A stretch of 64,000 bases of DNA from Elsinoe ampelina. Its lineage: Eukaryota. Location of the stretch: NCBI GenBank assembly GCA_010093995.1, contig ML992512.1:939831-1003830 (forward strand), read 5' to 3'. The notes under the pieces were generated by a model that saw only the letters and a list, made by a program, of their open reading frames with translations, ran no database searches and was not told the DNA's origin. The position numbers were made by a program, and so were the translations under genes. This document shows, piece after piece, positions 1 to 58,005 of the stretch. Every line of letters begins with the position of its first letter. Position 1 is the stretch's first letter.

Positions 1-686
1 GGGAGCCTGTATACACACAGCACCCTAGACGTCCACCAAAACCGTTCCCTGGATCCATTGCTTATAGCAGATACATCCCCGAGATCGGCCAACACTTTTC
101 TCTTGAGGTCATTGACTGGCAAAATCAGGAGCATTTGAGACTGTTCAATGCATGGCAGAACGACCCTCGAGTAGCCAAGGGCTGGAATGAGACGGGCAGC
201 CTGGACCATCATCGGGACTATCTGAGAAGGCTGCACTTCGACCCTCATGTTTTGTGCCTATTTGGAAGATTCGATCAAACTCGCTTCTCCTACTTCGAGC
301 TATACTGGTCTCGCGAAGATCATTACGGCGCCCACTATCGAGCAGGTGATTTCGATCGAGGTCGACACTCTTTAGTTGGCGACGCCTCCTTCCGGGGATC
401 TCACCGTGTCAACGCTTGGTACTCCAGTTGCATACACTTTTGCTTCCTCGACGAACCTCGCACTGCGAACGTGGTAGGAGAGCCGAGAGCGACCGGTGGA
501 ACAATCTTGTCGTACGAGAATGCCCAGGGTCTCACGATTGGACATTACGTTGACCTTGGTCACAAGCGATCTGTGCACTCGATCTGCAGCCGCCAGAAAT
601 GGTTTCAGCTATGTCCTTTATTTTGGGATGGCCGCGTCAAACCGCAGGAATCCGCCGATCGTATGGCGTGGGATGCAAAGTTGTAG
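1..686 (+). CDS. sidF: Hydroxyornithine N-acyltransferase (SidF/IucB-like GNAT), 3' part; 5' end is outside the window
   Basis: Reading frame is open from the window start. [38 protein letters not shown] and DLGHKRS are typical of IucB/SidF acyltransferases. Ends in a PTS1-like AKL and lies next to a siderophore NRPS. Confidence 0.85.
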
Positions 687-1124
687 ACTTACCAAGAACC
701 AAGGTTCTCAATGCATGAATGTCAGGCGGCGTAGATTTGTGTCCCGCCGCCCCACAGCTCGGGTTTTCCCTAGCGAAGCATTAAGCTTTTACCCTACCTT
801 CTGCCTCCTGCCTTTTCTACAACAGTTTCGGAAACGATGCACAAACGACGCCGGAAGATGTGTTCGCCGATGTCGCTTGTGGAGCCTCACATGTCATCCT
901 CGATTTGCTACCGAACAGCAAACGAACAAGGATGGTACGGAGTACCAAGTCTTCAGCATGCGGGTGTGCTGCGCGAGGCTCTTGGGACTCATCCGCTGTT
1001 TCACTGAACTCCACGGTCTGGGATCAAAAGTCCATTGTTCTCGAGTGCCAGTCCATCGTACTCATTCTACTTCCACCAAAATCAGTACTCCCCAGCCTGA
1101 TCTGACTCTGGATTGGGCGACCTG

Positions 1125-4100
1125 ATGCGGATGTCGACAGGCAGCACCATGAATCTGGACGCTGACGGCAGTACGGTGACAAAACATCATGTCTCAGGCT
1201 TCTCTCAAATTGATATACCGGGATCACAATCTCCGCGAGTGCAATTACTGCTTCTTGCATGGCTTTCAACAGTGTTGAGATCGAAGAATACCGACGATGT
1301 TGAAGTTTATTGGACCATTCGGACCACCACATACTCACACCATTACGAGACTACGGAACAAGTCTTGCATGCTGCTACCATCCTTGACTCTCTTGAATCA
1401 CGAGTGGAAGAGGCAGCGAAGTTGATATCTGGTGTAGGTCTGGAGCCAATTCATCCTAGTGAACGACTTGTACGATTGAAGACCTTCCTAAATCCGGGGA
1501 CAGATTCGGATTCCGAAAGGCAGGTAAGTAATCTTCTGCCCAATGCCAGAGGATCCTACTGATTTGAGCCAGCCTGATCTGGAGGTGACGGTTCTGTTCG
1601 AACAGGATGACCTTGACATCGATTGTTGTATAAACAGTCATGACGCACGCAGATGGATATCCACACACTATGTCCACTGCTTCTTGGAAACCCTGGAAAG
1701 CTTCATCAAAGACTCAAGGGTCACATTGGCAGAATGTCTCCGCTGCACAGATCATGACATGACTGCGATTTGGAGCTGGAACAAAGTCTTACCAGATCTT
1801 CGAAAACTCTGCATGCAAGACATCATCGCAGATCAAGCAGCTGACTATCCAAACAAGCCGGCAATAGACTCCTGGGACGGTCGGCTCACTTACGCAGAAG
1901 TCGACCTGTACTCCTCTTATACGGCGACAATGTTAGTAGCGCGAGGCGTGCAACCTCACAGCTTTGTCCCAATCTGCTTCGAGAAGTCCAAATGGGCAAC
2001 AGTAGCTATACTTGCAGTCATGAAAGCCGGTGCGACTTTTGTCATGGTCGACCCATCACTGCCCCTGACCAGACTCCAAAATATAGCCACCCAGGTCAAT
2101 GCAGAGATCGTCATCGCCTCAGTACCGCAGCAGGACTTTGCAAGATCGATATTGCCAGACGGACAAGTGATCACACTTTCCGATGATACCTTCAACAATC
2201 CACTGCTCGCAGTGGAGAAACTCCCTACGGTTGATTCTTCGACGATCATGTATCTGATATTCACATCTGGCAGTACCGGCACGCCAAAAGGCGTGATGAT
2301 CTCGCATGAGACTTATACTAGTAGTGCTTTTCCTCGAGCCAAGGCTGTCGGGTACAATGCATCTTCTAGAGTGCTCGACTTTGCATCTTATGCGTTCGAT
2401 GTCTCAATCGACAGCATGCTCTTGACGCTCGCCAACGGGGGATGCCTCTGCATACCCTCAGATCAAGAACGTATGGACGATATCAATGGAGTCATTCGGC
2501 GAATGCAGGTGAACTACGCAGGGTTGACGCCATCAGTTGCTAGGATCTTGGATCTTGATGTTATTGCTTCCATGCAGGCCCTGGGTCTTGGAGGAGAACC
2601 ATCATCGGTTCAAGAGGTCAATCACTGGGGTCAGTACACGAGAATCGTCATCGGTTATGGACCGTGCGAGTGTACGATCGGATGCACGGTGAACAGCAGT
2701 GCAGCTACTGCAAGAGACTATATCTCCGTCGGTCCTGGTAATGGAGCAGCTATTTGGATAGTTGATCCCGACGATCATGAGGTCCTGGTTCCAGTGGGCG
2801 CAGTGGGTGAAATCTTGGTCGAAGGCCCCATTGTTGGTCAGGGTTATTTGAATGACAAGAACAAGACTTCTTCTGTTTTTATCGACAGTCCATCATGGTT
2901 GATGGCAGGCCACGGAACGGTGGAAGGACGAATCAGCCGGTTGTACAAGACTGGGGATCTCGGCAAATATGACCCAGATGGATCTGGCAGCATTGTATTT
3001 GTGGGACGCAAAGACACTCAAGTCAAACTCCGAGGCCAAAGGGTGGAGCTGGGTGAGATCGAAAGTCAGCTTCGATCTTCATTGGGCTCCGATATGGGCG
3101 TTGTCGTCGACATTATCAGTGGAGTAGGCACTGGAACCTCACAGACTCTGGTGGCATTTGTCACGTCCAAGTCCCGGACTGTCCATAGTCGTGACGAAGT
3201 GTCGCTTTCAGTTCTGGACCACGACACTGAGGAGCGATTGTCCGCAGCTGACAAGTATATCCGCACGGTCCTTCCTCGCTACATGATTCCGGTCGCCTAC
3301 ATTCCAGTAACCCACATTCCCGCTCTGATATCGGGTAAAGTTGATAGGAAGCAACTGAAACAAGTCGGAGCTCTTGTTGATTTGCAGAAACTCGGACAGA
3401 GCAGTAAAGGTCGCGAAGTTGGCCAAGCCGGTGAGCAGGAACTACTCCTCCGCTCGTTTTGGGCCAAGGTGCTCGACTTGGACGAAACCAGCATACAAGG
3501 GGACGCCAATTTCTTTTCGTTAGGGGGTGACTCAGTTACTGCCATGAAGCTTTCGTCGATGTGCCGCGCCGACGGTCTGACACTTTCTGTGTCACAAGTT
3601 GTCACACAACCGTCTTTATCGAACATGGCCAATTGCCTTAGCAGGGCAGCGAGAGATCAGGATACGCCTGTCAAGCCCTTCTCTCTACTATCAAGGCCTC
3701 TCTCCGAAGCTTGCAAGTTGGCAGCGAGGATCTGTAACTGTGACGCCGAAAATATCCACGACATATATCCTTGTACTCCAACACAGGAGTCATTATTTAC
3801 ATTCTCACTCAAATCGGAGATACCATACGTTGCACAACGAATCGCTCGTATACCAGATCACATCGGTACGGACGACTGGAAAGCAGCTTGGGACGCTGTC
3901 GTTCGTGAGGTACCAGTGCTACGCACCAGAGTTGCACAGGTACAAGAGTCAGGCCTACAGCAGATTGTCTTGGGATCGGGTATTCAATGGCATCATGCTA
4001 GTAGTCTGTCCGAGTACCTACAGCAGGACCGGGAAACGCCAATGGATCTCGGGCAGAAACTCGCCAGATTTGCCATCATCGAGGACGCACAGTCTCATGA

Positions 4101-7100
4101 GCGACAGATGGTCTGGACCATCCACCATGTTGTCTATGATGGCTGGTCAGAGCCGCTGATTCTCGGTATGGTGGAATCAGTATTGACCGCAAAGCCTCTG
4201 CAACAACCGACGCAGATGAAGCATTTTGTCAGACATGTCGGCAGCATTAATGATGGTGAGATGCGAGAATTCTGGAGAAATGAACTCGCCGGAGCTATAG
4301 GACCACAATTTCCGCCTCTACCACATCGCGACTATGTCGCTCATCCCTCACAGCGAGTAGAACGAGAGATTTTGATCTCTGACAATCTTGGACCGTATAC
4401 TCTACCGGTGTTGATACGTGGTGCTTGGGCTCTTGTTACTTCACGATTTTCTGGCAATCATGACGTTGTATTCGGCGAGACCCTCGCGGGTCGGGACATC
4501 TCTCTCATGGGAGCAGAGAGCATCATTGGTCCTATGATCGCCACCATACCAATCCGCGTCAAGGTTGACTGGTCAATATCAGTGGAAGACCACTTGAAAC
4601 AAATACAGCGGGATATGGCCAGTCGATCACCATATCAACATATGGGTATGCAGAACATAAGAAAGGTCAGCCCTGATGCTCAGATTGCTTGCGGTACCGG
4701 AACAGGTCTCGTAATCCAGCTGGAACCCAAGACCAACGCAAGTCAGCTCGGATTCGAGAGCAGCGACCCTGTCGTTGAGGCTTTACATTTCAACCCATAT
4801 CCACTCATGTTGGCTTGCGGAATCTGCCAAGGTGGGTTTCGTGTAATTGCCGACTTCGATGACAACCTCGTGAACTTGGATCAGATGGAACGTATGTTGA
4901 GCCAGCTTGAGGTGGCTTGCCACGCCATGATCAGGAATCATCAAATTCGCCTCGGCGAGATTGATTACATGCCGGAGCAGGAACTAGACCGGATCTGGAA
5001 ATGGAATGCCGCACCACCTTTACAATGGTACAGTGACTATGACACATTTGGTGCAGCACCAGAGGTCCTCACTGGCTCATCTTATCCGCAAACAACGGTT
5101 CCCTGGGTTTGCCAACTCGACAGCTCATCACGTCTGGCACTCATTGGCACGGTCGGAGCGCTCTGGTTGGAGGCTGCTCAGCTCCCAGGGCAGTTCGTCG
5201 ACACTCCAGCATGGCTCAAGCATGGCAGTGACACTGTTTCAGGCCGAGACGGTCGAATGTATCCCACGAGCGATATTGTGAGACTGAACGATGATGGCAG
5301 CCTCACTTTCATCCGACGAAGAGAGGAAGTCTTGCAGGCCAATGGCTATAGTATTGATGTTGGTCAGTTGCACGCGTATGCCTTGCGATATCTAGGCTCT
5401 TCGTTCGAAGTGTTGGTCGGTGTTCATTGTGATCGAAGTACGAAGATCGAGACTTTGATAATGCTGGTCGGAGAGCGAAGTCGTCGAAAGCCATCAGGAG
5501 AGACATTTGCCACACCAACACAAATTGACTCGCCGGTCTCGTCACCCCGCCGTGGATCACCACTATCGACAGCGGAGCTCAATTTGGATTTGATCCAGAG
5601 ACTCAGAGATCTCGACCAAGCCATCTTAGACTCATTACCGCCATATATGGTTCCATACACCTACGTACGGGTGGACACACTTCCCTCAGCATCGGAGATG
5701 ACCAGCCAACTCTCTCGAAATGAGCTCATCTCACGGTTCTCGAGTGAAACGATCTCCAAGATCCGTCAGAATCTCACAGCAGAATGGGGAAAACTTGCGG
5801 CCGCTGCGTGTCTAAGTGCGGAACAACGTATACTCAGAACTGCTTGGTCGGTCATTCTGGGGGTTACTGAAGACAGTATCAGCCTGAACGACAATTTCTT
5901 TCGTATGGGAGGAGATTCGGTCCTGGCCATGAAACTAGTGTCCCTACTCCGCTCTCAGGGATATTCCCTTAGTGTTGCAGACATTTTTCAGCATATGAGA
6001 TTGCAAGACGCTGCACGGCAGATCAGATCCACTTCTCCTCCTAAGACGGCCAAGGATGAGTATGTGCCTCTGTCATTGATACCGCCGAAGCTTCGTGATC
6101 ATTTCCAGGACATTTTCAAGCCAAAAATTGACCACGCGCACTGGATCATTCGGGATATCAGCCCAGTCTCCGATTCACAAGCATTGGATATCAGGGCGAC
6201 GGTCGAGAGTCCGTGTACATCGTACCAATATACGATCTTACGCTTCTCTCAGGACATTGACCGAGGCAGGCTCACTGCAGCCCTACAGAAACTGATCCAA
6301 TTGCATGAGATCCTCCGAACTGTCTTTTTCGAGTACGATTCTGTACTCTACCAAGCGGTGCTGGATCATGTTCAAATACCTGTCACGGAGTGTCGAACAC
6401 CAAATCAGGACCGGTGTACCATTTCAGAAATGTGCAGGGAAGACATTGACCTCGGTTTCGAGCTTGGCTCCCCGTTCACCAGATTACGAATCTGCGATTC
6501 TGGTACTGGACCATTCACCCTGATTATCGGTTTATCTCACGCCCAATACGATGGCGTTTCGCTTCCAATGCTTCTCAAAGACCTCGCAGACCTTTACTCA
6601 GGGAGTGAGCCGAGCCAACCTCGATCCTTTGTCCATTACATGGCGCGCATCTTGAGTCCTACTGCACAAGCGGAAGCTATCAGTTACTGGCGATCAGTTC
6701 TCATGGGCTCTCAAGTATCGGTCCTACCAGCTAGCGGTCATGAGCCGTCAGAACGAGCAGTCTTTAAAAGCAGCCCAGTTCGTCTGGGCTGGGAAAACAA
6801 GGACACCACCCAAGCTACTCTCTTATGCTCCGCATGGGCGCTGGTACTATCCCGGCGGATCGCTGCGACAGATATTACATTTTCGTTCATCACTTCAGGC
6901 CGGACCTTGTTGGATACCGGCGAATCTCCGACAGCGGGGCCGTGCTACCAGTTTACTCCCCTTCGGGTCCATCTCGACTCTCACTGGAAGGCCTCCAATC
7001 TTTTACGCACAGTACAAAAGCAGATGATGCAGTCTCAGGCTTATGATTATCTCGGATTTGAGAAGCTCAAGGAGAATTGCACGTCCTGGCCAGATGAGAC

Positions 7101-7350
7101 AAAATTCTTCGATTCCGTCGTGCATTATCAAGACGCTGGGGAAGATTATGACGAGATTGACTTCGCGGGGACTAACTGTCAGGTCGATGCTATCAAGCCT
7201 CATGGGGATTCAGCACGGCCGTGGAAGATTGTGAGCTTCGTCAAGGGTGGAACAACCCACGTCGGCGTAGTTGGCGGCGAGGAGAATGAAGTTCTGGTAG
7301 GAGAGTTGTTGGAAGAAATGGTGCAAGCCATGACAGAGCTGAGTCTATGA
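1125..7350 (+). CDS. NPS6: Extracellular siderophore NRPS (NPS6/SidD type), A-T-C-degenerate A-T-C; exons 1125-1523 and 1573-7350
   Basis: A domain (FTSGSTGTPKG, YGPCE, YKTGDL, QVKLRGQRVELGEIE), T (FFSLGGDSV), C (HHVVYDGWS), partial A, T (FFRMGGDSV), C (SHAQYDGVS). A phase-0 intron GTAAGT...CAG at 1524-1572 joins an upstream exon in frame. Confidence 0.9.
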
Positions 7351-7814
7351 AGCATTGCTGCAGGTCCTTCGAATCGTCATCCATAGCTGCACGGTGCATG
7401 GAAGCTCTTCCCCCCTTTGGCTTCTTCCATGTGATGCGTTTTCTGAGCTGGGCTATTGCTCGACATGTTTCAACATCTTGTCTGATTGTGTGATGAGCTG
7501 ATGGATAAGTAATCTATCATCGACTCAGCAAGGTCACAAGATGTAGCAATAGCGCCAGTCGCAAAAGCGACTGCTGACAGTGCTCTAGCGTATTTTGCCC
7601 CCAAGAGAATCGGTCAGGCCCGAGTACCCACCATGAGTGGAGCACTTGACAATGCGTCCTGGTTGCTGCGCGATACGAGGAGTATCGGCTAGGAAGTTGT
7701 TCCGGACGAGAAACTATGACGTGCAAGGAGATGAGCTACCGGCCCCGGGGGACATGTGATTTCCGCGACTAGGAAACTTTCCGCGGACCCATGCAACAAC
7801 TAACCGAGCCGATG

Positions 7815-7843
7815 ATCTGATTAGATGATGAGGGTCTGATAAG
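7815..7843 (+). promoter_or_regulatory. Paired SreA-like GATA elements upstream of the SidA-like gene
   Basis: ATCTGATTA (7815-7823) and GTCTGATAAG (7834-7843), each one mismatch from the SreA consensus ATCWGATAA. Confidence 0.55.
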
Positions 7844-8288
7844 ATTGAAACTCGGCCCAAAGAGGGGCCTGGCGGGCGCTAACGCGCCTTGTCCGTCATA
7901 CGCGAATTTTCGTCACCTTGGTACGTACCCACCATTATTAGTACATGTACCACGTTTGAGTGGGTTTCTACAAGCTCCGATGAGCACGGTCAAGCATGCC
8001 TTTGGTCGCCTCAAATGTTCCTAGCAAGAATGTTTGGCTAAGGGCAGGCTGACCAAGTAATCTAGGCGCCGCGATCGGCCACCTCCTAGGCCATTCCGTG
8101 GCAACTACCTTTCGATATGGCCCGCCCGCTGGTGCCCACAAGGAATTCTCATAGCAAAGAAGTAAACTGCTCGGTCAATCAAAAGGGCCGCTCCACCGAG
8201 TCCCTCTGCTCCCATCCGCTGCGACAACACGTTCCATTCCTATCCGTCTCACCCGGGTCGACGGGACGCTTACTCCTGATCAACTTCC

Positions 8289-9757
8289 ATGTCGGAGAAC
8301 GAGTCGGCCATGCACGGCCAGGTGTTTGACCTGGTAGTGCTCGGTCTCGACCCCTCTTCGCTCGCCGTGGCGGCCCAATTAGTCGACCAAAGACCTGGAC
8401 TCAGAGTCAAGATACTCAACGAGAACGACAGCTTCGAGTGGCGGCCAGCCAATGCATTATCAGAGAGCAGACTACAAACGACTTTCATGCGAGACTTGAC
8501 TACCACGAGCAATCCCCGCTCCTCGTTCACATTCCTCAACTATCTACATCGAAAGGGTCGACTTGTGAACTTCATCAATGTATCGAAGATCAACCCAATG
8601 GTACTTGAGATGCGAGACTATCTCTCTTGGGTTGTCGAGGAGATTGAGAAGCTGGGATGGATCGAGCACGGCAAGAGGATCCTGCGGGTGGAACCACTCC
8701 ACGCTCCGACCGCACATGGAGTTGAGATGTTTAGCATCAGATATAAAGACATCCATGACGGCAACCAAAGTACGATTCTGACCAAGAAGCTTGTCCTGGT
8801 CAATGGGAAAGCTGCAGAATTACCGGCTCCATTTCGGTCACCCGCATTGAGGCACCTGGTCAGCGATACCAGTAGTCACCGTGGTTTTGACTCTTCTCCA
8901 ATATTCGCAACAGGACACATAGCGATCGTTGGGTGTTCCCAAGAAGCAGCCGAGATATACAAAGAATTGCAGAGCAAACAGACGCACCTTCAGGTCACCT
9001 GGTTCATACAGGAGCAGCATCTCCGACCAAAGGAAGTGACAGCCTTGTAGGTATCATACAAAATTGGACTTGGTATCACCCCTTGGCTCACAAGACCACA
9101 GTACACAACTCTCTATTGACGACCCAAGTCCTGAAATGGCCAATTATCCTCCAGAGCTACGGCAGCAGCTGAGCTATGACACGTCTAGCGCCTCTCGCAT
9201 CTCACCAGCTCTGTTAGATTGGCTCTATGAATCGGAATACTTACGCCCGCTTGAGGATACGTCCTATGCCGATCGTCAACATGGTATCAAAACATCGATC
9301 CAGGTGGTGGGTGCGGAGCTCGACAAGCGTTCGACTGGTGACAAAGTGTGGCTCCTCCTCAAAGATAGCAATGACGGCATAGTGAAGCGATCTGAGGGCA
9401 CATTCGATCACATCATTGCCGTGCCACAAGCACATTCTAACATTACAAGTCAGACTACATCGGGTCTTGTGTATCTGACAGAGAAAGGTAGACTGGACGT
9501 TGATAGGGATTACGGGATCAACTTCGCCCGCAGGTCACTGCAGAAAGATTGCGGCGTGTGGCTGCTTGGGTCGCTGCCTCAGATGGTGAGTAGTACTGCA
9601 TAGAATGCGGCTAAACAGAGCAGAGATTAACGACAAATAGCTTGAAGGGGATGTTTTCCTTCATCTCGCGGAGCAAGGCCAACGAGTGTCCTCTGCTATT
9701 CTCAACAAGATTGGAGCAGAAGAGAATGACGAGATTCCCATCTCATCTGTTCTTTGA
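8289..9757 (+). CDS. L-ornithine N5-monooxygenase (SidA/IucD)-like protein with degenerate FAD/NADPH motifs; exons 8289-9046, 9102-9585, 9641-9757
   Basis: QTTFMRDL..NPRSSFTFLNYLHRKGRLVNF is the SidA hallmark segment. Two canonical GT-AG introns restore one continuous frame. Glycine-rich motifs are altered (GLDPSS, GCSQEA). Confidence 0.8.
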
Positions 9758-9866
9758 GGTCAGGTTCTGAATGTGAAGCTGTCAATAATGAGACGTCAAG
9801 CTAGAGGCTTTCCATGCCACGACATGGACACTTGTCGAGGCTTTTACTAGATAGCAATGATGAACC

Positions 9867-10264
9867 ATCTGATAAGCGATGGAGGCCCAATCTTTCTGCG
9901 GGCACGATTCTGTGTCCAACGTTTCCCGCGGGGATACGAGCATCCGCCTAGATCCGAGCATACCTTATGATCGACGTGCTCTTGACTAATCAGATGGAGA
10001 AGTTTCTAGGGTGTAAGTTAACCCTAAACTTGGTGAGGGTGCTCGCTTCCCTTGTTCCTGGGGGATGCTCGTTTGATGAGTCGTATCCCCGCGGAGAAGG
10101 TTATGCCGAGTCACATTATTTATTGTCCTGCCTCTTTCCGACGATCGATCAAATTCATGGATGTGACTCTCCATTCAGGGCAACGCCACATGGTGGAGCC
10201 TTTTGCACGCTAGCGGGCCCACACAGACTTGGTCGACCGACCACATGTCAAAGTTTTATCAGAT
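9867..10264. promoter_or_regulatory. SreA (iron-repressor GATA factor) sites in the sidI promoter
   Basis: Perfect ATCTGATAA at 9867-9875 (+) and 10256-10264 (-, TTATCAGAT); near-match TAATCAGAT at 9987-9995. Confidence 0.75.
9918..10102. repeat. Imperfect ~185-bp inverted repeat (foldback)
   Basis: CCGCGGGGATACGA (9926-9939) is the reverse complement of 10081-10094; ACGAGCATCC (9936-9945) pairs with 10063-10072; CGAGCA (9955-9960) with TGCTCG (10040-10045); AAGTTT(CT)AGGGT (10000-10012) with ACCCTAAACTT (10021-10031). Confidence 0.7.
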
Positions 10265-10479: not shown

Positions 10480-12246
10480 ATGGAGACGGTCTCTCTCGAG
10501 ACGTCTGCTGCAAACCAGCTTTCCCTACTCCACGGACCATCTTACCCACCGCTGATTGATCTCACCCTTGGCTCATTCCTGGACCATCAATGCCGGTTCT
10601 ATGGCAATGCCGAGTGTTTGATAGTCCCGTGGACAGACTCGAGATGGACCTATAACGACCTCAAGAGCCACAGCCGTCGACTGGCTCGATATCTGGTGAG
10701 CAAAAACATCAAACGCGGAGACCGAGTTGCGATTCTGGCTGGCAATTGCTCGGAATATGTCTCGGTCTTCTTCGCATGCGTGAGGATAGGAGCAATACTG
10801 GTCATACTGAACAACACTTACACACAGAGTGAAGTCCTGTATGCTTTGCAGTATACTGAGTCCAAGATTCTGTTTGCCACGCGGCAAGTCGGAAAGCTGG
10901 ACCACACTGGAATGCTTCGCAAATTCGCATCTCCTTCGAGCTCTCTGCCCGCACTCGGAAGTGTGATAATCCTACGTGGCGAGATGACAGGCTTGCCGAC
11001 ATACACACAAGCATTGCGTCTTGGATCCGACATGGACGATGGCGTGTTGGAACAGATAGAGACGGACCTGAGCCCTCACGATGTCTGCAATCTCCAATTC
11101 ACCAGTGGAAGCACTGGCGACCCGAAGGCCGCCATGCTCACGCATCACAATCTACTGAATAACGCCCGCTTCATAGGGGACCGGATGGAGCTGACAACCC
11201 GAGACATTCTCTGTTGTCCTCCACCACTGTTCCACTGCTTTGGGCTGGTCCTTGGCTTACTTGCCGTCATGACCCATGGTGCCAAAGTGGTCTATCCATC
11301 CGAAACATTCGACCCCAGCGCTGTCCTCAGGGCCATCTCTGCAGAGAAGTGTACGGCTCTGCACGGTGTTCCTGCCATGTTCGATAGCATACTTGGCCTT
11401 CCCCGACCAGCCAACTTCGATTGTTCTCAGCTTCGCACCGGTATCATAGCCGGGGCCCCAGTCCCTCGGTATCTCATGGAGATGCTTGTGAACGAGCTCG
11501 GCATGTCAGAATTCACCAGCAGTTACGGTCTGCCATGTTCTCTTTCTCTTGCCTTGCTACCATGACTAATCATTCCAGGCCTCACTGAAGCCTCTCCAAC
11601 GTGCTTCAACGCTTTCACCCACGACACCATCGAACGTCGCCTCTCCACTGTCGGCACCCTTCTCCCGCATGCTCATGCCAAGATCATTGACCGCTCCGGC
11701 GCGATTGTGCCCATTGGTACGCGTGGCGAGCTCTGCATAGCGGGCTACCAATTGCAGAAGGGCTATTACAAAAACGCCGTCAAGACGGCAGAGGCAATGG
11801 AGCGCGACGCCGACGGCGTACTTTGGCTCAAAACAGGCGACGAGGCAATGTTCGACCGGGAGGGCTACTGCTCCATCACGGGGCGCTTCAAAGACATCAT
11901 CATCAGGGGTGGGGAGAACATCTACCCACTTGAGATTGAGGAGAGACTTACCGCCCACGAGAATGTGGATAGAGCCGTGGTAGTCGGAGTGAGCCATATG
12001 AAATACGGCGAAGTAGTTGGTGCCTTTCTGCAGGCGACAAAGGGGGGAAGGAAGCCGAGCGATGATGAGCTGAGGGTTTGGGTGAGGGAGAAGCTCGGGT
12101 GGCACAAGGCGCCGCAGTACGTCTTTTGGATGGGCGAGAAGGGCGTCCCCGCGGAGATTCCGGTCACGGGAAGCGGGAAAGTGAAGAAATACGAAATGAG
12201 AAAGCTCGCTGAGGCATTGGTTTCGCCGACCAAGTCGAAGCTTTGA
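10480..12246 (+). CDS. sidI: Mevalonyl-CoA ligase (SidI-like acyl-CoA synthetase); exons 10480-11527 and 11579-12246
   Basis: AMP-binding QFTSGSTGDPK, PPPLFHCFG, YGLTEASP across intron 11528-11578, WLKTGD, RFKDIIIRGGENIYP. C-terminal SKL; siderophore cluster context. Confidence 0.8.
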
Positions 12247-44283: not shown

Positions 44284-45046
44284 TGGTCGTGACTTTGCAT
44301 AGGAGGCCACGTTCGGAGTCGGTGTAGAATGCCATAAGGTATACCAGACAGCACCCAAACGGGCTGGCATAGAATGTGATTTCGGACACAATACCTCGCA
44401 GGACCTCGTAAGAGGAGACGTGTCCACTCTGATATTTTGACTCAGCACGTCACGAACCGTCGCCGTATTTCTCATGATTTCTACCTCGAAGATGGAACTT
44501 CTACAGTGATCGGGACGGTAGTAAAGAGCTTGGTAAAATCCGGTGATTGGCGTTCTTGAGACGGGCCAATTGTTCATCCGGCGAAATTTCCGACGGAATT
44601 TTAGTCTGTTCCCACGATTTGGCAGCTCCTTCGTTTTTCCAGCGGCCGTATGCCCTTCCTCAACTTCTGCCGGCCCTTTCATTTCTCCGATCACACGCTC
44701 CATGTTTCTATGCAAGCCTGTGACACAACGTCACGACGTTATCCCAAAGCGCTGACTCCAGTGATTACCACTACAACTCCCGGCCGAGTGTTCAAGGAGG
44801 CCCTCTATCTGTTTCGAACGGAGCAATGATTGATCCCATCGAGAACAAGATGACACGACCAGAAGAAAGGTATAATACAGTCGATCATGGCTGGTGAAAA
44901 TGGTTTGTATCCATCAGAATTGAAACAATCTGAAAGAGAACGAAAAGAAGTCTCAAGTGTTTCTCAAAGCACCTTGACAAGTCTACTGTCTCAACCACTC
45001 ATCAACATAGATCCCAGCGCCCCTCAGACACTGCAGCTCTTCCACA

Positions 45047-46738
45047 ATGACATCCACTGAGGCTTCATCAAGGTCTGAACCGATACAATCGGACAGCGAC
45101 TCACCATCTCTCGACAAGCCTGAAGATGAAGCTCCTCCATCTTTCAACCCAGGCACCCGATTCTACCTAGCATGGTCGTCACTCATGATCATCGTCCTCA
45201 TGGCCGCCCTAGACGCAACGTCACTTTCCGTCGCCCTGTCCAAGATCGCCCGAGAGCTTCGCGGCTCTGCCATTGAGGCTTTCTGGGCGGGCACATCTTT
45301 CTTGCTCACCGGTACTGTGTTCCAACCCGTCATCGGGTCACTGAGTGGCATATTCGGCCGCAAGCCTTTACTGCAGGCCTCTCTGGTTTTCTTCCTGGCC
45401 GGCGCCATCGTAGCCGCGCTTGCTGGAAGAGCTACTCATGGCATGGCAGTAATGCTTGTTGGACGCAGTATTCAGGGCATTGGAGGCGGCGGTGTCATTG
45501 TCCTGGCTGAGATCCTGCCTACTGATCTTGTCCCACTCCGTCTTCGCGGGAACTATCTGGCATCGATTGGCGCCATGTGGGCTTTGGGCAGTGTCGGAGG
45601 TCCCCTCATTGGTGGAGCTTTCGCCGCTGGCGACGGCAGCAACTGGCCTTGGATATTTTGGATCAATCTCCCTTTCATAGCAATCGGGGGCGGCCTGATG
45701 ATTGCCTTCTTGCAGCTCAACAACCTTCCTGGATCGCTGGCTGCCAAGCTTCGCCGGGTCGACTACATGGGCATGGTCCTTTTCATTGGCTCTACCACTG
45801 GGTTATTGATCCCTTTGACCTGGGGCGGTGTCATGTACTCGTGGTCGTCCTGGCGCACGCTGGTGCCTCTACTGGTATCTGCTGCTGGTCTGGTAGCCTT
45901 TGTCGTGTGGGAGGAGCGTTTCGCGGTAGAGCCACTTATCCCCTTCCGTATCACCAAGAGCTGGACAGCCGCGGCCACCTATATCACTACCTTCCTCCAC
46001 GGTATGGTCCTCTGGTGTCTTCTCTACTACGGGCCCCTCTACTTTGAAGCAGTCAAGGGCTACAGTCCTCTCATCTCCGGTATTGCCCTCTTCCCATCGA
46101 CCTTCACTGTCGCCCCAGCAAGCGTAGTAGTCGGCATCCTTGTCACCAAGACTGGTAAATACCGATGGTCACTTTACATTGGCTGGACTCTCGCCACGCT
46201 TGGCTTTGGCCTTCAGTACCTCATGACGCACACCATTCCTACTGTCGGATGGGTATTCTTCCTCATCATCACCGGCCTCGGCACGGGTCTGCTCTTCCCC
46301 GGTCTCGCTTTCAGCGTTCAAGCAGGTGCCGCAGAGGAGGATGCTGCCTCGGCCGTCGCTCTCTTCACCTTCATGCGCACTTTCGGTCAAGCAATCGGTG
46401 TCGCGGTGGGTGGTGTCGTCTTCCAGAACGCCATCAGGAAGCAGATTGCTTCTCGACCTCTCATCGCCATGAACGCTGCGCAATGGGCGGCCGACTCCAG
46501 TGCGCTGGTGCAAACAATCCATGGCATGCCTGAGGGACAGATCAAGATGGATCTGATCGAGAGCTATGCCGATGCGCTCAAGGTGGTCTGGGCTGTCTGC
46601 TGCGGCTTTGCTGGTCTGGCTCTTCTGCTTACCTTCTTGATCAAGGAATTCAGCTTGGATCGCCAACTGGGAAGCAAGGAGCAATTTGTGGATAGCAGGA
46701 GAACTAGCTCCGAGGAGGCTGGTGCTGAGAAGGCGTGA
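45047..46738 (+). CDS. MFS efflux transporter, 14-TMS DHA2-like
   Basis: ALDAT, SGIFGRKP, GRSIQGIGGGG, GPLIGGAF, WPWIFWINLP; intronless 563 aa. Confidence 0.9.
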   Translation: MTSTEASSRSEPIQSDSDSPSLDKPEDEAPPSFNPGTRFYLAWSSLMIIVLMAALDATSLSVALSKIARELRGSAIEAFWAGTSFLLTGTVFQPVIGSLSGIFGRKPLLQASLVFFLAGAIVAALAGRATHGMAVMLVGRSIQGIGGGGVIVLAEILPTDLVPLRLRGNYLASIGAMWALGSVGGPLIGGAFAAGDGSNWPWIFWINLPFIAIGGGLMIAFLQLNNLPGSLAAKLRRVDYMGMVLFIGSTTGLLIPLTWGGVMYSWSSWRTLVPLLVSAAGLVAFVVWEERFAVEPLIPFRITKSWTAAATYITTFLHGMVLWCLLYYGPLYFEAVKGYSPLISGIALFPSTFTVAPASVVVGILVTKTGKYRWSLYIGWTLATLGFGLQYLMTHTIPTVGWVFFLIITGLGTGLLFPGLAFSVQAGAAEEDAASAVALFTFMRTFGQAIGVAVGGVVFQNAIRKQIASRPLIAMNAAQWAADSSALVQTIHGMPEGQIKMDLIESYADALKVVWAVCCGFAGLALLLTFLIKEFSLDRQLGSKEQFVDSRRTSSEEAGAEKA

Positions 46739-46950
46739 GAGCAGGATGGGTGTCGAGAAGTCTGTATCATGATACTTTATGATAAACGAAAGAGCGTGGA
46801 GTTTGGCAATGTTTTCGATATAGACAAGGGTCAGGATGATAGATCATAATTAGACGAGTAGCTGTAATCTAATTCCACTTATTTCTAGAAAGATCTTCAT
46901 GTCCTCGTTCAACTGCAATAGTCGATTTGTGTTCACATTACTGGTCATGT

Positions 46951-47781
46951 CTACGTTACTATGAGTTCTGCGGAAGCGTCATCGACTAATTGCAGTCCGT
47001 GACCATGCTCGTTCATCACTCGAACGGCCTCCTGCGTTAGCTGGTAACTCCAGTAATAATTGGAGAAGTCGTTCGCGCTCTTGACGTGGGTCGAACTGGA
47101 ATCGGGTGCCGCTGCTCGCGTGTTTCGCACGACTTGTGCTACCCTCTCCGACCTCAGCTCATTGAAGACCTGAAGTCGAGCATGCACCTCGTCAGACTTG
47201 GCACCTTTCAGGACAACTCGCAGTGCTTCGGCATCCTCCAGTGCTTGACATGCTCCCTGTCCTTGGTCTACAGTCTGTCAGTTCTCGTGATCGTTCGACG
47301 CTGATGACCACGCTCACGTGGTCCCATCGCATGACCTGCGTCACCGATGAGAGCAAAGTTGTCCTTCACCAGGGAGTCGAGTGGATCTCGATCCCTCAGC
47401 TGCCTGCCATCCGCCATTGCGAGAGCCTTGAGGACGCTTGGGTGGAAGTCCTTGAACGTCTCGAGAATCTCCTCGACTGAAGCTTTCTCATCCCACTGCA
47501 TACGTCGTTCGCTACTATCTGGAAAGATACCGACAAAGTACCTTCTCAGCCTCGACGTAACGAGCTTTGTGCTTGTCAAAGCCAGCGCGAGCGAAGCTCG
47601 ACCTGAGTAATCTACTGGCATTGACCGAGAACGTTACGGCAGCGCCGACTTTTTTGTGCACAGTAGATGCTCCAAGAACAACCACATCATGGTCCTCTCT
47701 GAGCAGCAATGCTGTAGCTATGCCTGCAATACCGGCACCGCACACGATCACTCTAAGTCGGGATGTGATAGCTTCTACCAT
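46951..47781 (-). pseudogene. FAD-dependent monooxygenase (salicylate hydroxylase-like) with large internal deletion
   Basis: N-terminal VIVCGAGIAG and C-terminal LIGDAGHAMGP/HQGQGACQALEDA are present, but the central DG-motif region is missing. The N-terminal frame stops at 47515. Confidence 0.75.
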
Positions 47782-48133
47782 GTTTGACAGCAGCCTAGCG
47801 AGAGGCCCTGGGGGAAGAAAAGAATCGCATGTTGCTGGACTATTGAAGTACCGCCCTGTCCGAACGTCGCAGGTAAGAGTGCGGGTAGACTGACAGTTCA
47901 CATCACATGAGTTGCGGAAGTCGTGCATCGGTTGTGCAAGTGTATACTTCTGGTTCTCGAAATGTTATCTGTCCCGTCACTGCGATGCAAATGATTAAAA
48001 TCTCCACTGTATTTTGCTCATCCCTCCGGCGCCAAAGCTGGTATCAAGTGAATGTCGTGGCCCATTTCCCGCGAGCAAAAATTAACGTCATCTCTGGCAT
48101 GAAATTATTTACAATGGTCATAATCGTGCTAAT

Positions 48134-49415
48134 CTAGACATAGATGTAGCACAGAGGTCGTTTGGTCGTCGACATGACGTCTCCGATGGTGACAGTCTTC
48201 GCGAGGACACCGAGATCGATCGCATCGGTCAAGGCCGTGTCGCGGCTGGGAGGACTGTTGAAGAGTGTGAGGGTTCCGGCAAGTGCTCTCTCACGGGTAG
48301 CAAGGTCCTGATTCTGCCAGATCCACCAAAGGCGATCGATTTGACCATGATGGAGGAAGAAGTATGGGTCGCCAGGGGAGGCAAAGAGATCTCCCCCTGG
48401 ATCGCCACCAACAAGGAAGTGACCAGCAGTATGCACACCGATAAATCCGTTGGGGAAGTCACCTTGCATGGTGTTCTGGAAGGACAAGATGTCCTGGTTG
48501 TTATTGATAAGAGTGGTCGAGTTTTGATCGTAGAGGTTCGAGGTCGAAGCCGCCGAGCTGATGTCACGGCGGATGCAGCGAGGATTGTATCCAAGTCCAT
48601 CAGGAGACGGGTTGGCGGGAGCGTATGGAAGGACAGGCGAGAGAGGCCCAAGGTTGACCTGGTAGTCCTTGAACGGACCGGAGGTGATGCAGTCACCACC
48701 GTTTCCAGGTGGAAGAGTCAGGGGAGGCGTAGCTGCGGCAAAGATCACGGCAGGAGGGTGCTCACGGTAAGCACCATCGCCGCTCATTGAGGTGTCGGAG
48801 CCATCGAAGACTGGTGCTGCGCGAGGGTTGGACGCTAGCTTTCCCCAGTTGAGGTATGGTTGATATCCGGTGTAGCCGCACTCATTTCGCAAAGCTTGCT
48901 CGTAGGCCCATGTGAAATATCTGTGCCATGACAAGAAGTTTCCAGTGCCGTGGATGGACAAGGTCTGTTGAATGTGCTTCAACATGTTAGTCTTGATGAT
49001 TTGGGATGAGATACTGAGGTCCACATACAATAGCGACAAAATCATCGTATCGGTTCTTCGCTCCTGGGGCGGCGGAACCGACTTGAGAAGGTTTCGATTG
49101 CAAACACTGGACAGCAGAGATGTAGGCCTTCTTCTCCTTTGCGCTAAGTGTGTTCCTACTGAGGTCAGTATCGTTCACGGAGGCATCATGAGTGAGGGCT
49201 TACCATTCTCTCCGCTGAGCGGCTGTGAGTATGTTGCATGTTCCTGGTGCTCCCGAGGTAAATTGAGAGACAGCAAGCTTGATCAGCCCCAAAGCTGCAA
49301 GCTTGTCTGTACCGGCGGTGCTGTCTGGTGTCCATGCTGGCGCAGGTGCACGCTTGACAGGGCCAGCACTAACGACCGTAGCCGCAGCAGCGGACAGAAG
49401 CCAAAGAAGATGCAT
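48134..49415 (-). CDS. Secreted tyrosinase-like di-copper protein, three exons
   Basis: Signal peptide, RREW, YDDFVAIH, IHGTGNFLSWHR (CuA), VHTAGH and DPYFFLHHGQIDRLW (CuB), terminal CYIY; no C-terminal shielding domain. Confidence 0.9.
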
Positions 49416-50911
49416 AATGTAATGCCCACGTGGATGACTGCCTGAAAGAAGAGTCGAAGATCAGCGATTATCCACTACTGTGCAGTATACACGTGGTGCA
49501 CGTTGGAGTAATGGGCTGCATGAAACCGTCATGGGAACCTGCATATATAGATACAAATAGAGGTCTCATTAGAGCCATTGGATAGCGCAATATGATCAAC
49601 GCGCAGTACCCACCGGAATCCTGACTATGCAGCCACAAGGGTGACAGAACATGTCTAGCTCACCTGTCATGCCAGGAAAACCAAGTGCCGAACGAGTGGG
49701 AGGCGGCGCGGGCTTGCGGGAAATGTCCAGGCTCGTCCCGTTATGGAAAAAGACTTTTGGGGCCCTGCAATTTAAGTTGACCTACGCCCGGGATTGCCCC
49801 ACTGCGGCGTGGTGAAGATGCAGGGCAAGCCCCAGAGGGGGGGCTGACTTTCCAGAAGGCTTCTCTAGACCAAGTTGGGGCGAGACTGGATCTCCTTGAC
49901 GACGAGTCGAAGGATTCATGCAGCTGACGGTGAGCAGCTTCGAAGAGATGTGCTTGAGACACCCAATTCCCGCAGCGTAACAGCTTGGATGAAATGATAG
50001 TCTCAGACGACACAAGCGAGGCGTCCGGAAATGAAGCCTTTAGGGCTCGCTGGGCACCTGATCCACGATAAAGTGAAGATTGATCTCCCTGCCAATGACG
50101 ATCAATGGAGCCACGTGCGAGGGCCTGAGAAACATCACGCCGCACGCGAGGTGCGACGACGGCATAGAATTGCCGTTGGTTTTTGCTTTTGTGTCGACCG
50201 CGATAGGGCACGGCCGGGAACCGGTCACAGGCAGCGTGGCTGTCCGTTGGAGAGAAAAAGAACAGACGCCCCCCTGCATGGACGAAGCTAAGTAGACGAC
50301 ACTATTGCCTTCTAGGCGGGATAGGAAACCGCACGGAAGTCATCGTATCCGAAGTCATGGCTCTCGCACGTAGTCCTGGAGAGGGAAGAGCTACGCAGCT
50401 ATTGGAACAAAAGACGAAGGAGGCAAAGACATAGAGGTTACCGTTGGGTGGCACTCTGTGCTGATCAGAGCCGAAACAGACGTTTGCGCTCTGGTGGCAG
50501 GATTCAAGCTCGGCGCCGCTGATATACCTGGTCCTTTCCATATCCTGGTGTACCCGTCATGCATATCCTCGGTTGTTTAGGCAGATTTGCAGAGGTCCTG
50601 AATATGGACAACGGCTGATCAGCATGTCGCGTTGGTGGACTCGCAATCGACTTGTGTGCCCTGGGTCGGTGAAGACTCCTCTGACAATCTCAGCATCCCT
50701 GCCGCCGGCAAGAGGGGGCCGTGTGATTTCTTCGGCTCGCATCAGGCACTAACTCGGACGGGATCGTGCAAGTGTGCATCCCATGGTGAGCTATTGGAAT
50801 GGTACGGGCTCTTCCTGTAACAGATGTGCAATTATACATGCATACACATAAAGATCCCTGATCGCCGGTCAAGATCTGTCCGCGCACCTTTGCTGCATCG
50901 TTGCGTACATC

Positions 50912-52298
50912 ATGCCGGCACTTTTGCTTGCTCGTGCAGGTGACCTGACACGGCGTGCCAATGTCAAGGGTTCTCCAGCATACCTCGCCGAAAACAACGC
51001 GCCTGCTATCCTTACACTTGTTGGCGTCTTTGGAGGACTGTCTCTCGTGACGGTATGTCTTCGGATCTATGTCCGGCAATTCATGCTGGAAGGCGTGACT
51101 GCCGATGACATTGTTATGTTTGTCGCAATGGTCAGTCATTCATCCTGCATTCCATAGAATGCTTCTGACTCTATCAGCTCATGGGTATCGCCTTGTTCGG
51201 ATGCTTCTGTGGTCAAGCCAATCATGGACTGGGTCGCCATGAAGAGTTCTTGACTTTGGACGATCAACAAGGCTTTCAGCGCATCCAGTTCTGGTCTTCC
51301 TTGCTGGTCACCTCAGCCATCACCTTGGTCAAGGTCTCGATATCGCTGCTTCTCATCAAGCTGGTGAACAATAAGCACCTTATCCGCTTCCTTTACGTCT
51401 TCATCGGTGAGTTCATGTTTGCGACACATGTAAGGTCTTGCGACTGACATTCAAGGTTTGATCTGCGCATACACGATCGCCTCCGATCTCACCATCATCC
51501 TCGCCTGTCGACCAGTGGACGCCGCTTGGGACTTTTCGAAAATGCCGACTGCGAAATGCTTCTCGACCAAGACGTTCAGTGCTCTCGGCATTGCCAATTC
51601 GGTCGTCACTATCTTTACCGATGTCCTGCTTGCGCTCCTTCCGGTGCCCATCGTGTGGAAATTGCAGACCAACTTGCGAACAAAGGTCGCTCTGATTGGT
51701 GTGCTGGCCTTGGGTCTCGTCGCAGTAGCTGCCGGTGCTGTCAAGGTCAACGCTCAACTGACTTTCTTGTCTATCGCGGATCGTTTCTAGTAAGTCGTCC
51801 ACTGTCCTATGGCCGCAACAGCCGTGCTGACAGTCACCCAGCAAGAACGAATTCCCAGTCTGGGCTGCGCTGGAGCTATACATTGCCATCATTGCGGCGA
51901 CACTGCCGACACTGCGTCCTTTGATGGCCGCATTCTTCAATGGTGTACGAAGCACAATTGGTTCGTCGAGCGGACGTACGAAGAAGACAACGCAGCAAAA
52001 TACAGGAGGTCGATCGAGACAGAGAGGATACCATTCTCGAGCAATGTCGACCACTTGCAGCCGCAACGAGATGGTCAGAGATGAGGCAGGTAGCCAGGAA
52101 GGGCTTGTACTCACTCCGGTGAGCGGGAAGCACACTCCTGCTCTCACAAGGTCGACAGGCACTGGTGAGATGGACGAGAAGAGCAAGGATAACAACGTTA
52201 TTGTTCGGACTACGCATATCCATACGACAAAAGGATCGAGCTCCGACAGCTCTCCTAATGCGTCGTCATTCGGGGAGTTTGAATTTCAGAAAAGATGA
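50912..52298 (+). CDS. PTH11-like GPCR-type integral membrane protein (no CFEM), four exons
   Basis: VCLRIYVR, ADD, HGLGRH, VKVSISL, CRPVDAAWD, TDVLLALLPVP.VWKLQ; Ser/Thr-rich cytosolic tail. Confidence 0.85.
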
Positions 52299-52876
52299 TT
52301 GTATCAACGACTGTATTATAGAGCGTCCCAGCCGCAATGACGGGTAGGCGACATTGTAATGATTACTTCTTTCCCACGATCGAGCCCTTCTCTGGCTGCA
52401 CACCCAAGAACGCTTTCCCACGGCGAGCGGGGTACATTAGGCATGGCGCAATCGCTGGCGTGACCTCAGATCCCGTGAAAAACCGTCGTTGTTCTGGAAG
52501 GAAAGCTAATTATGAAGGAAAATTGATGAGAAAGAAGCTCGTTTTCAGCTGCGAGAGCGGCACCAAGACTTTGTTTAGGCTGCCTTGGGAAGGTGACAGG
52601 GTCCGGGATAGAGATCTACTGCTTGGCCTTTACCTTTGCTCCTCTCCGGACTTTCTCTTTGGATGGGACTATGCACAGTACCTTGACAAAATGCTTAGCA
52701 TGCTTGGACCTTTCTATTTTGTCGTGTGCGTTCAGGGCGGACATGAACTAGGTCCATGGCCAAAGATAAGTGGCCGCTGCCAAAAAAGAGTGGCGAGCGG
52801 CAGAGGAATGCTATATTAATCAAGCAGCGCTGGTCGCTGATGTGTGGCTCATCACAGGTATCTCACCAAGGTCATC

Positions 52877-54409
52877 ATGAAGGTCAACTCATTCACTTCG
52901 GTCGCTGCATTGGCATCCACGGCGCAAGCCGTTTTGCCACCTCTTCGTTCAGAGTGGTTCCAGAATACCATCACCACGAATGGGTGAGTTGTCTCTAGCG
53001 GTCACTGATCCAACTTCTCACGCAATCGCAGTCTAATGGAGAATCTGGCCAACCTAGACCGGATTGCGACGGAGAATGGTGGCAATCGAGCCTTTGGACT
53101 ACCCGGCTACGACGCATCTCGCGACTTTGTCTTCGACCGTGTGTCCAAGTCGAAGAGGTTCACAGCTTCGAAACAAGACTTCCCTGCTTTGTACAACAAT
53201 GTCGACTCGATCACATTTCGTGTAGCCAACACCAGCTACTATGTCTTCGGTCCGACGTACTCGCCATCAACTTCTCCAGAGGGACTGACCAGGCAGCTCG
53301 TCCTTGGGCCTTCTGGTGATGCAGGTTGCAGCGTAGAGGGCTACGCAAACATCGACGTCAAGGATAAAATGGTCTTGGTACAGAGAGGGACATGCCCGAC
53401 TGGAGGGACCATCGCCGGAAGGATCAGGCCTGCCGCTGCTGCCGGCGCTGCCATTGTTATCCTATACAACAATGTACCCACCAAGGTCACTGGAGGTACC
53501 CTTTCAGCACCGGACCCAAAAGCTTTTGTTCCCAGTGGCTTCATCAATCAAGATGACGGCGAGGCTCTGCGGACAAGATTACTTGCTGGCGAAGTCATCG
53601 AGCCGTACTTTCAACACACTCAGACAGTCGAGACCAAGATCACTCAGAACGTCTTTGCTGAATCCAACGGCGGTGACCCCAACAATGTCATCATGCTTGG
53701 TGCCCATCTCGACAGTGTGAAGGCTGGTGCTGGTATCAACGATGATGGATCTGGGAGCTCTCTCCTGCTGGAACTCTTTGACGGTCTTCAGCGTTTCAAT
53801 TTCCGTAATAAGATCAGGCTTGCATGGTGGGGAGCTGAAGAAAATGGTCTAGTCGGTTCCCGATACTACACAACGCAGATCAACAACACAGCAGATGCCG
53901 ACAACCTTCTTCTCTACCTGAACTTTGACATGGTCAGCAGAGGCTACTTTGGAGTGTTTGACGGAGATGGAAATACCCACGGCTTGGCTGGTGCTCCCGG
54001 CTCGGATGTTATCGAGAAGCTGTTCGTCGATCACTTGACAAGCAAGGGTATCAATGTCACCGCCGCCATCTTCACCGGTGGTAGCGATTATGCCTCATTC
54101 ATGTCGACCCTTAACAAGCCTGTCGGCGGTCTACACACCGGCACTGGCGTTGCCCAGGACGACTGCTATCACCAACAATGTGATGTTTATGGCAATGCAA
54201 ACCCCAATACACTCACCATCAACGCCAAAGCTGCGGCCCATGTTCTGTCCGTACTGGCCCAGCGAGGTCAAGACATCATCCCTAAGAAGACCGGCAATTT
54301 GACCATGACGGTGGGCAAGCGATCAGTGGAAAGCTTGGATCTCGACGACTTCCCATGGACTGTGCTTGACAGCGAACGCCATCTCGGCACTTGCGGCCAC
54401 GATGTTTAG
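52877..54409 (+). CDS. Secreted M28 aminopeptidase with PA domain (Lap2/Ape3-like); one short intron after about 52983
   Basis: Signal peptide exon, LVQRGTC PA domain, GAHLDSV, NDDGSG, AEE, NFDMV, SDY, CYHQ. Confidence 0.9.
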
Positions 54410-57922: not shown

Positions 57923-58005
57923 TTCGTCGACTGTCTGCCTGGACGACCATCACACTCGTCTGATCTGCTTTTCATATCGTCTTGGAAAAAGGCTCTCTCG
58001 ATTGT

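Follow-up and report, generated by a model that had tools for sequence, protein, structure and literature searches.

Why does a siderophore gene cluster keep an intact gene for an N-hydroxylating monooxygenase whose cofactor signatures are all altered? The question arises from a 64,000-nucleotide stretch of the genome of Elsinoe ampelina (GenBank assembly GCA_010093995.1, contig ML992512.1, positions 939,831 to 1,003,830 of the forward strand), called here the window, in which a paralogue of the L-ornithine N5-monooxygenase SidA lies at 8289..9757, between genes for a sidD-type non-ribosomal peptide synthetase (NRPS) and a sidI-type ligase. The gene is a candidate for a real, conserved and mis-annotated pseudoenzyme, and its product is probably a maintained non-catalytic accessory of the extracellular-siderophore (sidD/F/H/I) branch of the pathway.

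Gene structure

The paralogue is a protein of 452 amino acids, encoded by three exons separated by two introns, and the translation of the window sequence contains zero internal stops. The exons cover regions related to the binding of flavin adenine dinucleotide (FAD) and of reduced nicotinamide adenine dinucleotide phosphate (NADPH):

8289..9046, plus strand: exon 1, with the start of the FAD domain, the conserved helical segment and the region of the NADPH motif (from sequence, contigs and Pfam)
9047..9101, plus strand: intron 1, 55 nt, GT..AG, absent from the contigs of 4/4 runs
9102..9585, plus strand: exon 2 (from sequence and contigs)
9586..9640, plus strand: intron 2, 55 nt, GT..AG, absent from the contigs of 4/4 runs, kept in the public 419-residue model
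9641..9757, plus strand: exon 3, with the last helix, an acidic linker and the C-terminal tail, absent from the public model, present in the orthologues P0005 and P0006

Both introns are exactly removed in contigs from all four public sequencing runs, which belong to three studies. The runs are not recorded as RNA, but from the exact intron skipping we infer that the contigs derive from mRNA. The gene model follows the splice choice seen in these contigs, alternative donors and acceptors having been listed. The intact three-exon reading frame announced by the original prediction is therefore borne out. The marks of a pseudogene (stops, frameshifts, loss of splicing, a ratio of non-synonymous to synonymous substitution rates, dN/dS, near 1) were not found, the dN/dS part of this statement coming from Cladosporium-like relatives and not from Elsinoe.

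The public protein for this gene has 419 residues, since it retains intron 2 and loses exon 3. The tail is missing too from the models of Glonium (P0300) and Phaeomoniella (P0027), so that it is easily overlooked in databases. In run X5 a single spliced contig of 10.4 kb, which starts farther upstream, spans sidD and the paralogue (window 1000-9875); runs X1, X6 and X9 have a separate contig for the paralogue, starting at 7950-8174. The X5 contig may result from overlapping untranslated regions or from read-through, and does not prove a single transcript.

Catalytic residues and fold

The altered signatures and the best-conserved part of the protein are the following:

8343..8357, plus strand: altered FAD motif GLDPS, residues 19-23 (canonical GFGPA)
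8469..8648, plus strand: residues 61-120, conserved best of all (identity with canonical SidA 37-63% in blocks of 30 residues), with K107 changed to Arg inside
8931..8948, plus strand: altered NADPH motif GCSQEA, residues 215-220 (canonical GxGQSA, S257 changed to Glu)
9406..9429, plus strand: altered D..xxATGY motif DHIIAVPQ, residues 355-362

Catalytic-site residues such as K107 are numbered as in SidA from Aspergillus lentulus, whose numbering agrees with that of the A. fumigatus enzyme wherever this was tested. The motifs originally read from the DNA (GLDPS, GCSQEA, DHIIAVPQ, FMRD and the KGRL stretch) are all present as written in the translated gene, FMRD at residues 66-69 and PRSSFTFLNYLH at residues 76-87.

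The window protein keeps three of eight FAD-site residues, two of five NADPH-site residues and one of five ornithine-site residues. Among the other full-length homologues (n=141), 139 keep all eight FAD residues, 119 all five NADPH residues and 111 all five ornithine residues. Other homologues retain G48 in 223 of 224 cases, K107 in 218 of 227 and S257 in 221 of 228, and the changes in the window protein far exceed this variation. The protein lacks the full FAD set of an L-ornithine N5-monooxygenase (GxGxxA, E83, W90, D108, R144, ATGY). On the NADPH side it has GCSQEA, with Glu for S257 and Gln for R279, and the single ornithine contact that it keeps is one of Q102, K107, N293, N323 and S469, the last three being in a less certain part of the alignment. 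The residue sets are the author's choice: mutagenesis described in PMC7347517 and PMC10696468 backs K107, S257, R279, N293, N323 and S469, and the FAD-contact set rests on conservation. According to these two papers, the K107A variant does not hydroxylate, and S257A and R279A/E use NADPH poorly.

Exon 1 matches Pfam PF13434 with an E-value of 1.4e-49 (169.5 bits, for a cut-off of 21.3), and the NCBIfam profiles gave only sub-threshold matches. The predicted model has a local confidence score (pLDDT) of 79.1 and a predicted template modelling score (pTM) of 0.70; its top Foldseek matches are SidA structures (TM-score 0.70, root-mean-square deviation (rmsd) 7.3 Å, E 1.4e-36). The SidA-like three-domain fold is thus kept in the model of the window protein. 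A complex prediction with the fungus's own SidA and residues 10-414 of the 419-residue model gave 0.05 in two runs; it lacked the last exon, was made with no alignments, and is used neither way.

A complete SidA elsewhere in the genome

The genome holds two true PF13434 genes, the paralogue of the window and a canonical sidA on another contig (C2). The latter lies about 7 kb from a sidC-type NRPS gene, with an ABC transporter gene between them, which is the layout of the NPS2/ferricrocin cluster in PMC3895014. Its product has every catalytic motif and all the residues scored (FAD 8/8, NADPH 5/5, ornithine 5/5). The paralogue is therefore not the only SidA homologue of this fungus; had it been the only one, and an ornithine hydroxylase, the reading as a pseudoenzyme would have been given up. 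The canonical protein ends in IFGR, without the [SA]x[LMF] tail discussed below. A consensus AG/GTGAGT donor overlaps its stop codon (L001 2826-2831; C2 near 64540), but among splice forms using this donor and 14 downstream acceptors none leads to an [SA]x[LMFI] end, and one weak site leads to AMV.

A second sidA-like gene in a sidD/F/H/I cluster has been described in Cladophialophora carrionii ('sidA2', CLCR_02414; PMC10382037) and in Cladosporium fulvum (the SID1 homologue of the NPS9 cluster; PMC3895014). In both systems the first sidA stands beside sidC/NPS2, the same two-cluster layout as in E. ampelina. The second genes are called ornithine monooxygenases, the available text of the two papers reports no test of this function, and their membership in the clade of the window protein is inferred from position. 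These names, together with the database names, the PF13434 match and the SidA fold, would agree with the annotation of the paralogue and make it a second L-ornithine N5-monooxygenase that serves the sidD cluster alone. It has, however, lost nearly all the experimentally tested catalytic residues and there is a complete SidA elsewhere in the genome, so that this explanation is very improbable.

A clade of degenerate paralogues

In a tree of 281 proteins from the matches listed, 52 form the paralogue clade (FastTree local support 0.965, which long branches may inflate). The window protein groups with these degenerate paralogues, apart from canonical SidA, and is linked to sidI and sidD with the canonical sidA elsewhere. 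Named members are known from Elsinoe, Sphaceloma, Neodothiora, Aureobasidium, Zalaria, Lecanosticta, Cladosporium, Venturia, Tothia, Rhizodiscina, Lophium, Glonium, Trichodelitschia, Pseudovirgaria, Microthyrium, Exophiala, Lithohypha, Knufia and Phaeomoniella; Cladosporium, Glonium and Knufia were placed in the clade via cluster mates of tree members. Aureobasidium melanogenum has sidA as well as the paralogue. The clade spans Dothideomycete and Chaetothyriomycete paralogues, and no named member from Eurotiales, Pleosporales or Sordariomycetes was found among the matches listed. In metagenome loci (79 in all, of which the 15 loci L017-L031 were analysed, L031 being bacterial-looking with a GC content of 0.72), the paralogue adjoins sidI in all eight with downstream DNA, in a gene orientation that differs from that of the window.

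The 39 non-redundant members (P0074 included) seldom keep K107 (one member), S257 (two) or G255 (seven). Position 257 is Glu in 23/39, and in 30/39 Asn, Asp, Ser or Thr takes the place of the dinucleotide motif's second glycine. At position 107 the replacements are Gln (16), Arg (9), Ser (4), Asn (3) and Asp (2). The FAD residues are mostly present: G46 in 39, G48 in 34, E83 in 34, W90 in 35 and D108 in 39. The ornithine and NADPH sites are thus lost in the clade, whereas most members still have the FAD site. The latter is lost in Elsinoe, where 3/8 residues remain in the window protein and 2/8 in the E. fawcettii orthologue; S. murrayae has 6/8.

The family might instead consist of flavoproteins with a changed chemistry, using another amine, NADH or a non-nicotinamide reductant, of which the Elsinoe protein would be a weakened or derived member. 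DesB, which lacks the equivalents of the ornithine-anchoring K107, N293 and S469, hydroxylates diamines (PMC10696468), and the R279E mutation turns SidA to NADH (PMC7347517), Glu being the commonest residue of the clade at position 279 (11/39). The FAD site of most members, with G46 and D108 invariant, is in line with this idea, and so are the Chaetothyriomycete members, which keep four of five NADPH residues. Diamine hydroxylases generally keep GxGQS, however, and the clade has mostly replaced the second glycine and S257 of this motif. No invariant new active-site residue stands in place of K107; the variety of the replacements at catalytic positions is easier to reconcile with loss than with a new active site. 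The low FAD scores of the window protein and of its E. fawcettii orthologue also speak against it. Changed chemistry is therefore an unlikely explanation overall: the new-chemistry option first proposed is conceivable for the family, mostly intact at its FAD site, and unlikely for the window protein, whose FAD site is also lost.

Selection was measured in seven Cladosporium-like loci of one metagenome. For the paralogue, dN/dS ranges from 0.048 to 0.200 (21 pairs) and no stops occur in the 7 loci; in the same loci, sidI and sidD have values of 0-0.053 and 0.043-0.068, respectively (10 pairs for each gene). The selection on the paralogue is purifying, yet looser than that on the SidI and SidD enzymes.

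The Elsinoe gene might nevertheless be a relic under relaxed selection, still transcribed because of its position in the cluster. The Elsinoaceae orthologues are only 39-46% identical, their branches are long, and the FAD site is eroded though kept elsewhere in the clade. Despite this divergence, the reading frame is still fully open in three Elsinoaceae species, which also retain the last exon and the tail; residues 61-120 of the window protein are still 37-63% identical to SidA, its splicing is exact and dN/dS in its relatives is at most 0.2. We consider the relic unlikely.

The orthologues are intact and free of stops, and the dN/dS values show purifying selection in the Cladosporium-like loci, which does not fit neutral decay. 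Together, the lost catalytic residues, the canonical sidA elsewhere and the intact orthologues support what was initially deduced from the DNA alone, namely that the gene is a maintained paralogue and not a working ornithine hydroxylase. It was not noticed then that this paralogue belongs to a widespread clade with a conserved C-terminal tail.

The C-terminal tail

Behind the last helix, a variable linker leads to a conserved tripeptide:

9746..9754, plus strand: C-terminal tripeptide SVL, of the clade-wide [SA]x[LMF] type, resembling a type 1 peroxisomal targeting signal (PTS1) but outside its consensus

SVL ends the window protein and that of E. fawcettii, and SMF, SML, AML, AMF, AVL, ATL, AQL, ARL or SRL are found elsewhere in the clade. 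An [SA]x[LMFI] end is present in 16 of 18 full-length non-redundant members, compared to 7/102 other homologues and 13/278 ends of open reading frames (ORFs) of the same genome. This count excludes fragments, P0120 (390 residues), P0074 (399 residues, sister to the clade), P0027 (a second model of the P0173 gene) and sequences more than 90% identical; 39 canonical SidAs ending in AML were set apart from the 141 other homologues. A first set of ORF ends (25/147) contained cluster genes and paralogue loci and was dropped in favor of the clean set of 278. Sequences obtained later follow the pattern in 3/4 new proteins, the fourth being a model without the last exon, and in 10/10 loci (AML in nine, AMI in one), although these represent few independent lineages. 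The C-terminus is small-x-hydrophobic and probably free after the variable linker, as the model of P0005 has a pLDDT below 50 over its last 10 residues.

The PTS1 patterns used are (S/A/C)(K/H/R)(L/M) and the broader [ACHKNPST][HKNQRS][AFILMV] (PMC3709128, PMC12316961). The strict consensus of PMC3709128 is found in 4/18 members, some with textbook signals (ARL, SRL). SidI, SidF and SidH of the cluster end in SKL, AKL and PKL, and the A. fumigatus proteins SidI, SidH and SidF are peroxisomal (PMC3709128). The SKL of the window SidI (10480-12246) is a PTS1, whereas according to PMC3709128 SidI carries a PTS2 outside the Sordariomycetes, in a Dothideomycete among others.

In Aspergillus and Penicillium, the variable linker of canonical SidA is followed by a final RAML (39 sequences; P0007-P0023, P0190-P0228); SidA of Histoplasma and Emmonsia ends in ARL, and those of Bisporella and Diplocarpon in SKL and AKL. 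The RAML end of Eurotiales SidA may be a weak PTS1 that has escaped notice. His is the last residue of several short-tailed canonical SidAs (NGH, KKH, ARH and YSH in P0204, P0213, P0217 and P0221).

SreA-type sites

The consensus of the SreA-type site is ATCWGATAA (PMC10382037). The sites next to the paralogue are:

7815 and 7834 (span 7815..7842), plus strand: two SreA-like sites with one mismatch, 455-474 nt upstream of the ATG of the paralogue
9867 (plus strand) and 10256 (minus strand), span 9867..10264: two exact sites, both downstream of the paralogue and upstream of sidI

Two exact sites in the window are not above chance, since shuffled sequences contain 1.03 on average and 32/100 shuffles reach 2. 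The SreA-like sites first ascribed to the gene therefore hold for the upstream one-mismatch pair; the exact ones are downstream of the gene and not enriched. An exact site is found 328-559 nt before the start in 10/10 related loci examined, a range that includes the pair of the window; counted across all the fungal loci examined, it is 10/14, with approximate starts for four.

These sites bear on whether the paralogue could be a regulator that damps SidA by occupying positions of its tetramer, or a carrier that shields N5-hydroxyornithine. The fold is kept, SidA is tetrameric (PMC7347517) and Arg107 could still bind a carboxylate. However, the upstream site in the 10 related loci implies co-induction with the pathway, which would be odd for an inhibitor. 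The carrier, one of the roles initially proposed, is made unlikely by the loss of the other ornithine contacts (N293, N323, S469) and by the presence of Arg107 in only 9/39 clade members. Neither role accounts for the tail, and both together have a low probability, a little below that of the relic.

Proposed function

A copy that is spliced, under selection and without cofactor sites, and that keeps its fold, has iron-type promoter sites and carries a terminal tag is most simply explained as a non-catalytic partner. This is also the option that fits best among the three put forward originally, and we regard the accessory role in the sidD/F/H/I branch as probable.

How it would act is much less certain. 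An ancestral tailed SidA may have been duplicated; catalysis would then have stayed with the copy beside sidC, at the cost of its tail, and the tail and the fold with the copy in the sidD/F/H/I cluster, at the cost of its catalysis. If the tail is a weak PTS1, the paralogue could join the SidA tetramer and carry the catalytic SidA piggy-back into peroxisomes, where N5-hydroxyornithine would then be made beside SidI, SidH and SidF. The tetrameric state of SidA (PMC7347517) and piggy-back import into peroxisomes (PMC12316961) are both established. Import is favored because the tag and the catalytic residues are split here between two copies, whereas single-copy lineages carry both on one protein. 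Such weak-PTS1 import of the catalytic SidA is possible and the likeliest single mechanism, though we hold it only tentatively. Slightly more doubtful is the proposal taken whole, in which the dead tailed copy ferries SidA as a hetero-oligomer and steers N5-hydroxyornithine to secreted siderophores under iron starvation, RAML of the single-copy Aspergillus SidA being a weak PTS1. Most of the remaining probability of an accessory role goes to a proposed peroxisomal scaffold acting with SidF or SidI, without SidA binding. The tail could instead be another binding motif, and the conserved segment 61-120 as the surface in contact with SidA is a guess.

Several observations weigh against this reading. 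All eight FAD residues are kept in 11 of the 15 non-Elsinoaceae members scored, which suggests that flavin binding matters in the family. The Cladosporium-like loci used for dN/dS are only remotely related (identity between P0289 and the window protein is 26%) and are not a measure of Elsinoe, whose branches are long (1.19-1.43, compared to 0.66-1.10 in six relatives). The tail pattern was set after the first sequences had been seen and the members are related, so that the counts overstate their independence. SVL, AML, AVL and ATL match neither PTS1 consensus, and even the broad pattern is found in only 5/18 clade members. The linker before the tail is acidic in Elsinoe, and an acidic linker ahead of the tripeptide disfavors a PTS1. 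Canonical SidA of Venturia inaequalis ends in KHI, which fits the broad PTS1 pattern, although this species has the paralogue. A. fumigatus SidA, with an AML end as in its A. lentulus relative, is counted without a PTS in PMC3709128, where N5-hydroxyornithine is argued to cross the peroxisomal membrane freely; import of SidA may then be unnecessary. Finally, import by non-canonical signals is only partial and concerns a subset of proteins (PMC12316961).

Comparison with known systems

A. fumigatus SidA (PDB 4B63, 4B69, 6X0K) is both the best sequence match in the PDB (E 2e-32, exon 1) and the best fold match of the paralogue. Over residues 61-90 the paralogue and the A. lentulus protein share 63% identity, and Eurotiales SidA ends in RAML, like many members of the clade. 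Unlike the A. fumigatus enzyme, to which it is about 25% identical overall (rmsd about 7 Å), the paralogue is changed at G48, E83, K107, R144, G255, S257, R279, N293, N323, S469 and the TGY motif.

The diamine N-hydroxylases DesB, DfoA and putrescine N-hydroxylase (PDB 6XBB, 5O8P, 7US3) belong to the same fold family. They are active NADPH-dependent enzymes, solved with NADP, whereas the paralogue lacks the NADPH and FAD residues and is closer to fungal SidA. A diamine hydroxylase combines a changed substrate pocket with intact FAD and NADPH sites, and the window protein does not have these intact sites (FAD 3/8, NADPH 2/5).

Eci1 and Dci1 are paralogues. In the pairs Dci1-Eci1 and CCS-SOD1, a partner with a PTS co-imports a protein without one (PMC12316961). 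Unlike in these pairs, the tail of the SidA paralogue is non-canonical, and the likeness is a functional analogy only.

Second sidA-like cluster genes are already in print, as seen above; no description of the degenerate sites or of the tail was found in the literature searched, which was mostly open-access and does not establish their absence from print.

Cluster neighbourhood

The neighbours of the paralogue in the window are:

3..686, plus strand: sidF-like transacylase, 3' part, ending in AKL
1528..7350, plus strand: sidD/NPS6-type NRPS, with an adenylation (A) stretch, two PP-binding stretches and two condensation stretches
10480..12246, plus strand: sidI-like acyl-CoA ligase, ending in SKL

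A 49-nt intron of sidD at 1521-1569 places its coding start upstream of the long ORF. Farther upstream, the cluster contains sidF-like, sidH-like, major facilitator superfamily (MFS) transporter, ABC transporter, esterase and GNAT acetyltransferase genes. The alpha/beta-hydrolase esterase and the Acetyltransf_3 GNAT protein (L012 3439-5102) are candidates for a siderophore esterase and an N2-acetyltransferase. Near the contig end, at 45011-61493 of the window, there are two MFS transporters, a tyrosinase, an M28 peptidase, a pectate lyase and a short-chain dehydrogenase.

Two Aureobasidium-like loci (L025 15437-16870; L028 5922-7298) have an extra adenylation-domain gene between sidI and sidF. 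Its identity with the SidC and SidD queries is only about 25-28%, and none was seen between sidI and sidF in the window.

Significance

Fungi commit to hydroxamate siderophore synthesis at the SidA reaction, and the enzyme is a studied antifungal target. On present evidence, this reaction is beyond the second 'ornithine monooxygenase' that many Dothideomycete and black-yeast genomes encode, so that its annotation, and the assumption that it is redundant, are probably mistaken. A conserved pseudoenzyme in such a well-studied cluster would be an undescribed component of the pathway, and the Elsinoe protein is a useful extreme, its gene persisting after the loss of the FAD site. The tail bears on how the peroxisomal SidF step obtains N5-hydroxyornithine, for which PMC3709128 proposes passive entry. 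If the paralogue does ferry SidA, the first committed step of siderophore synthesis would be partly peroxisomal.
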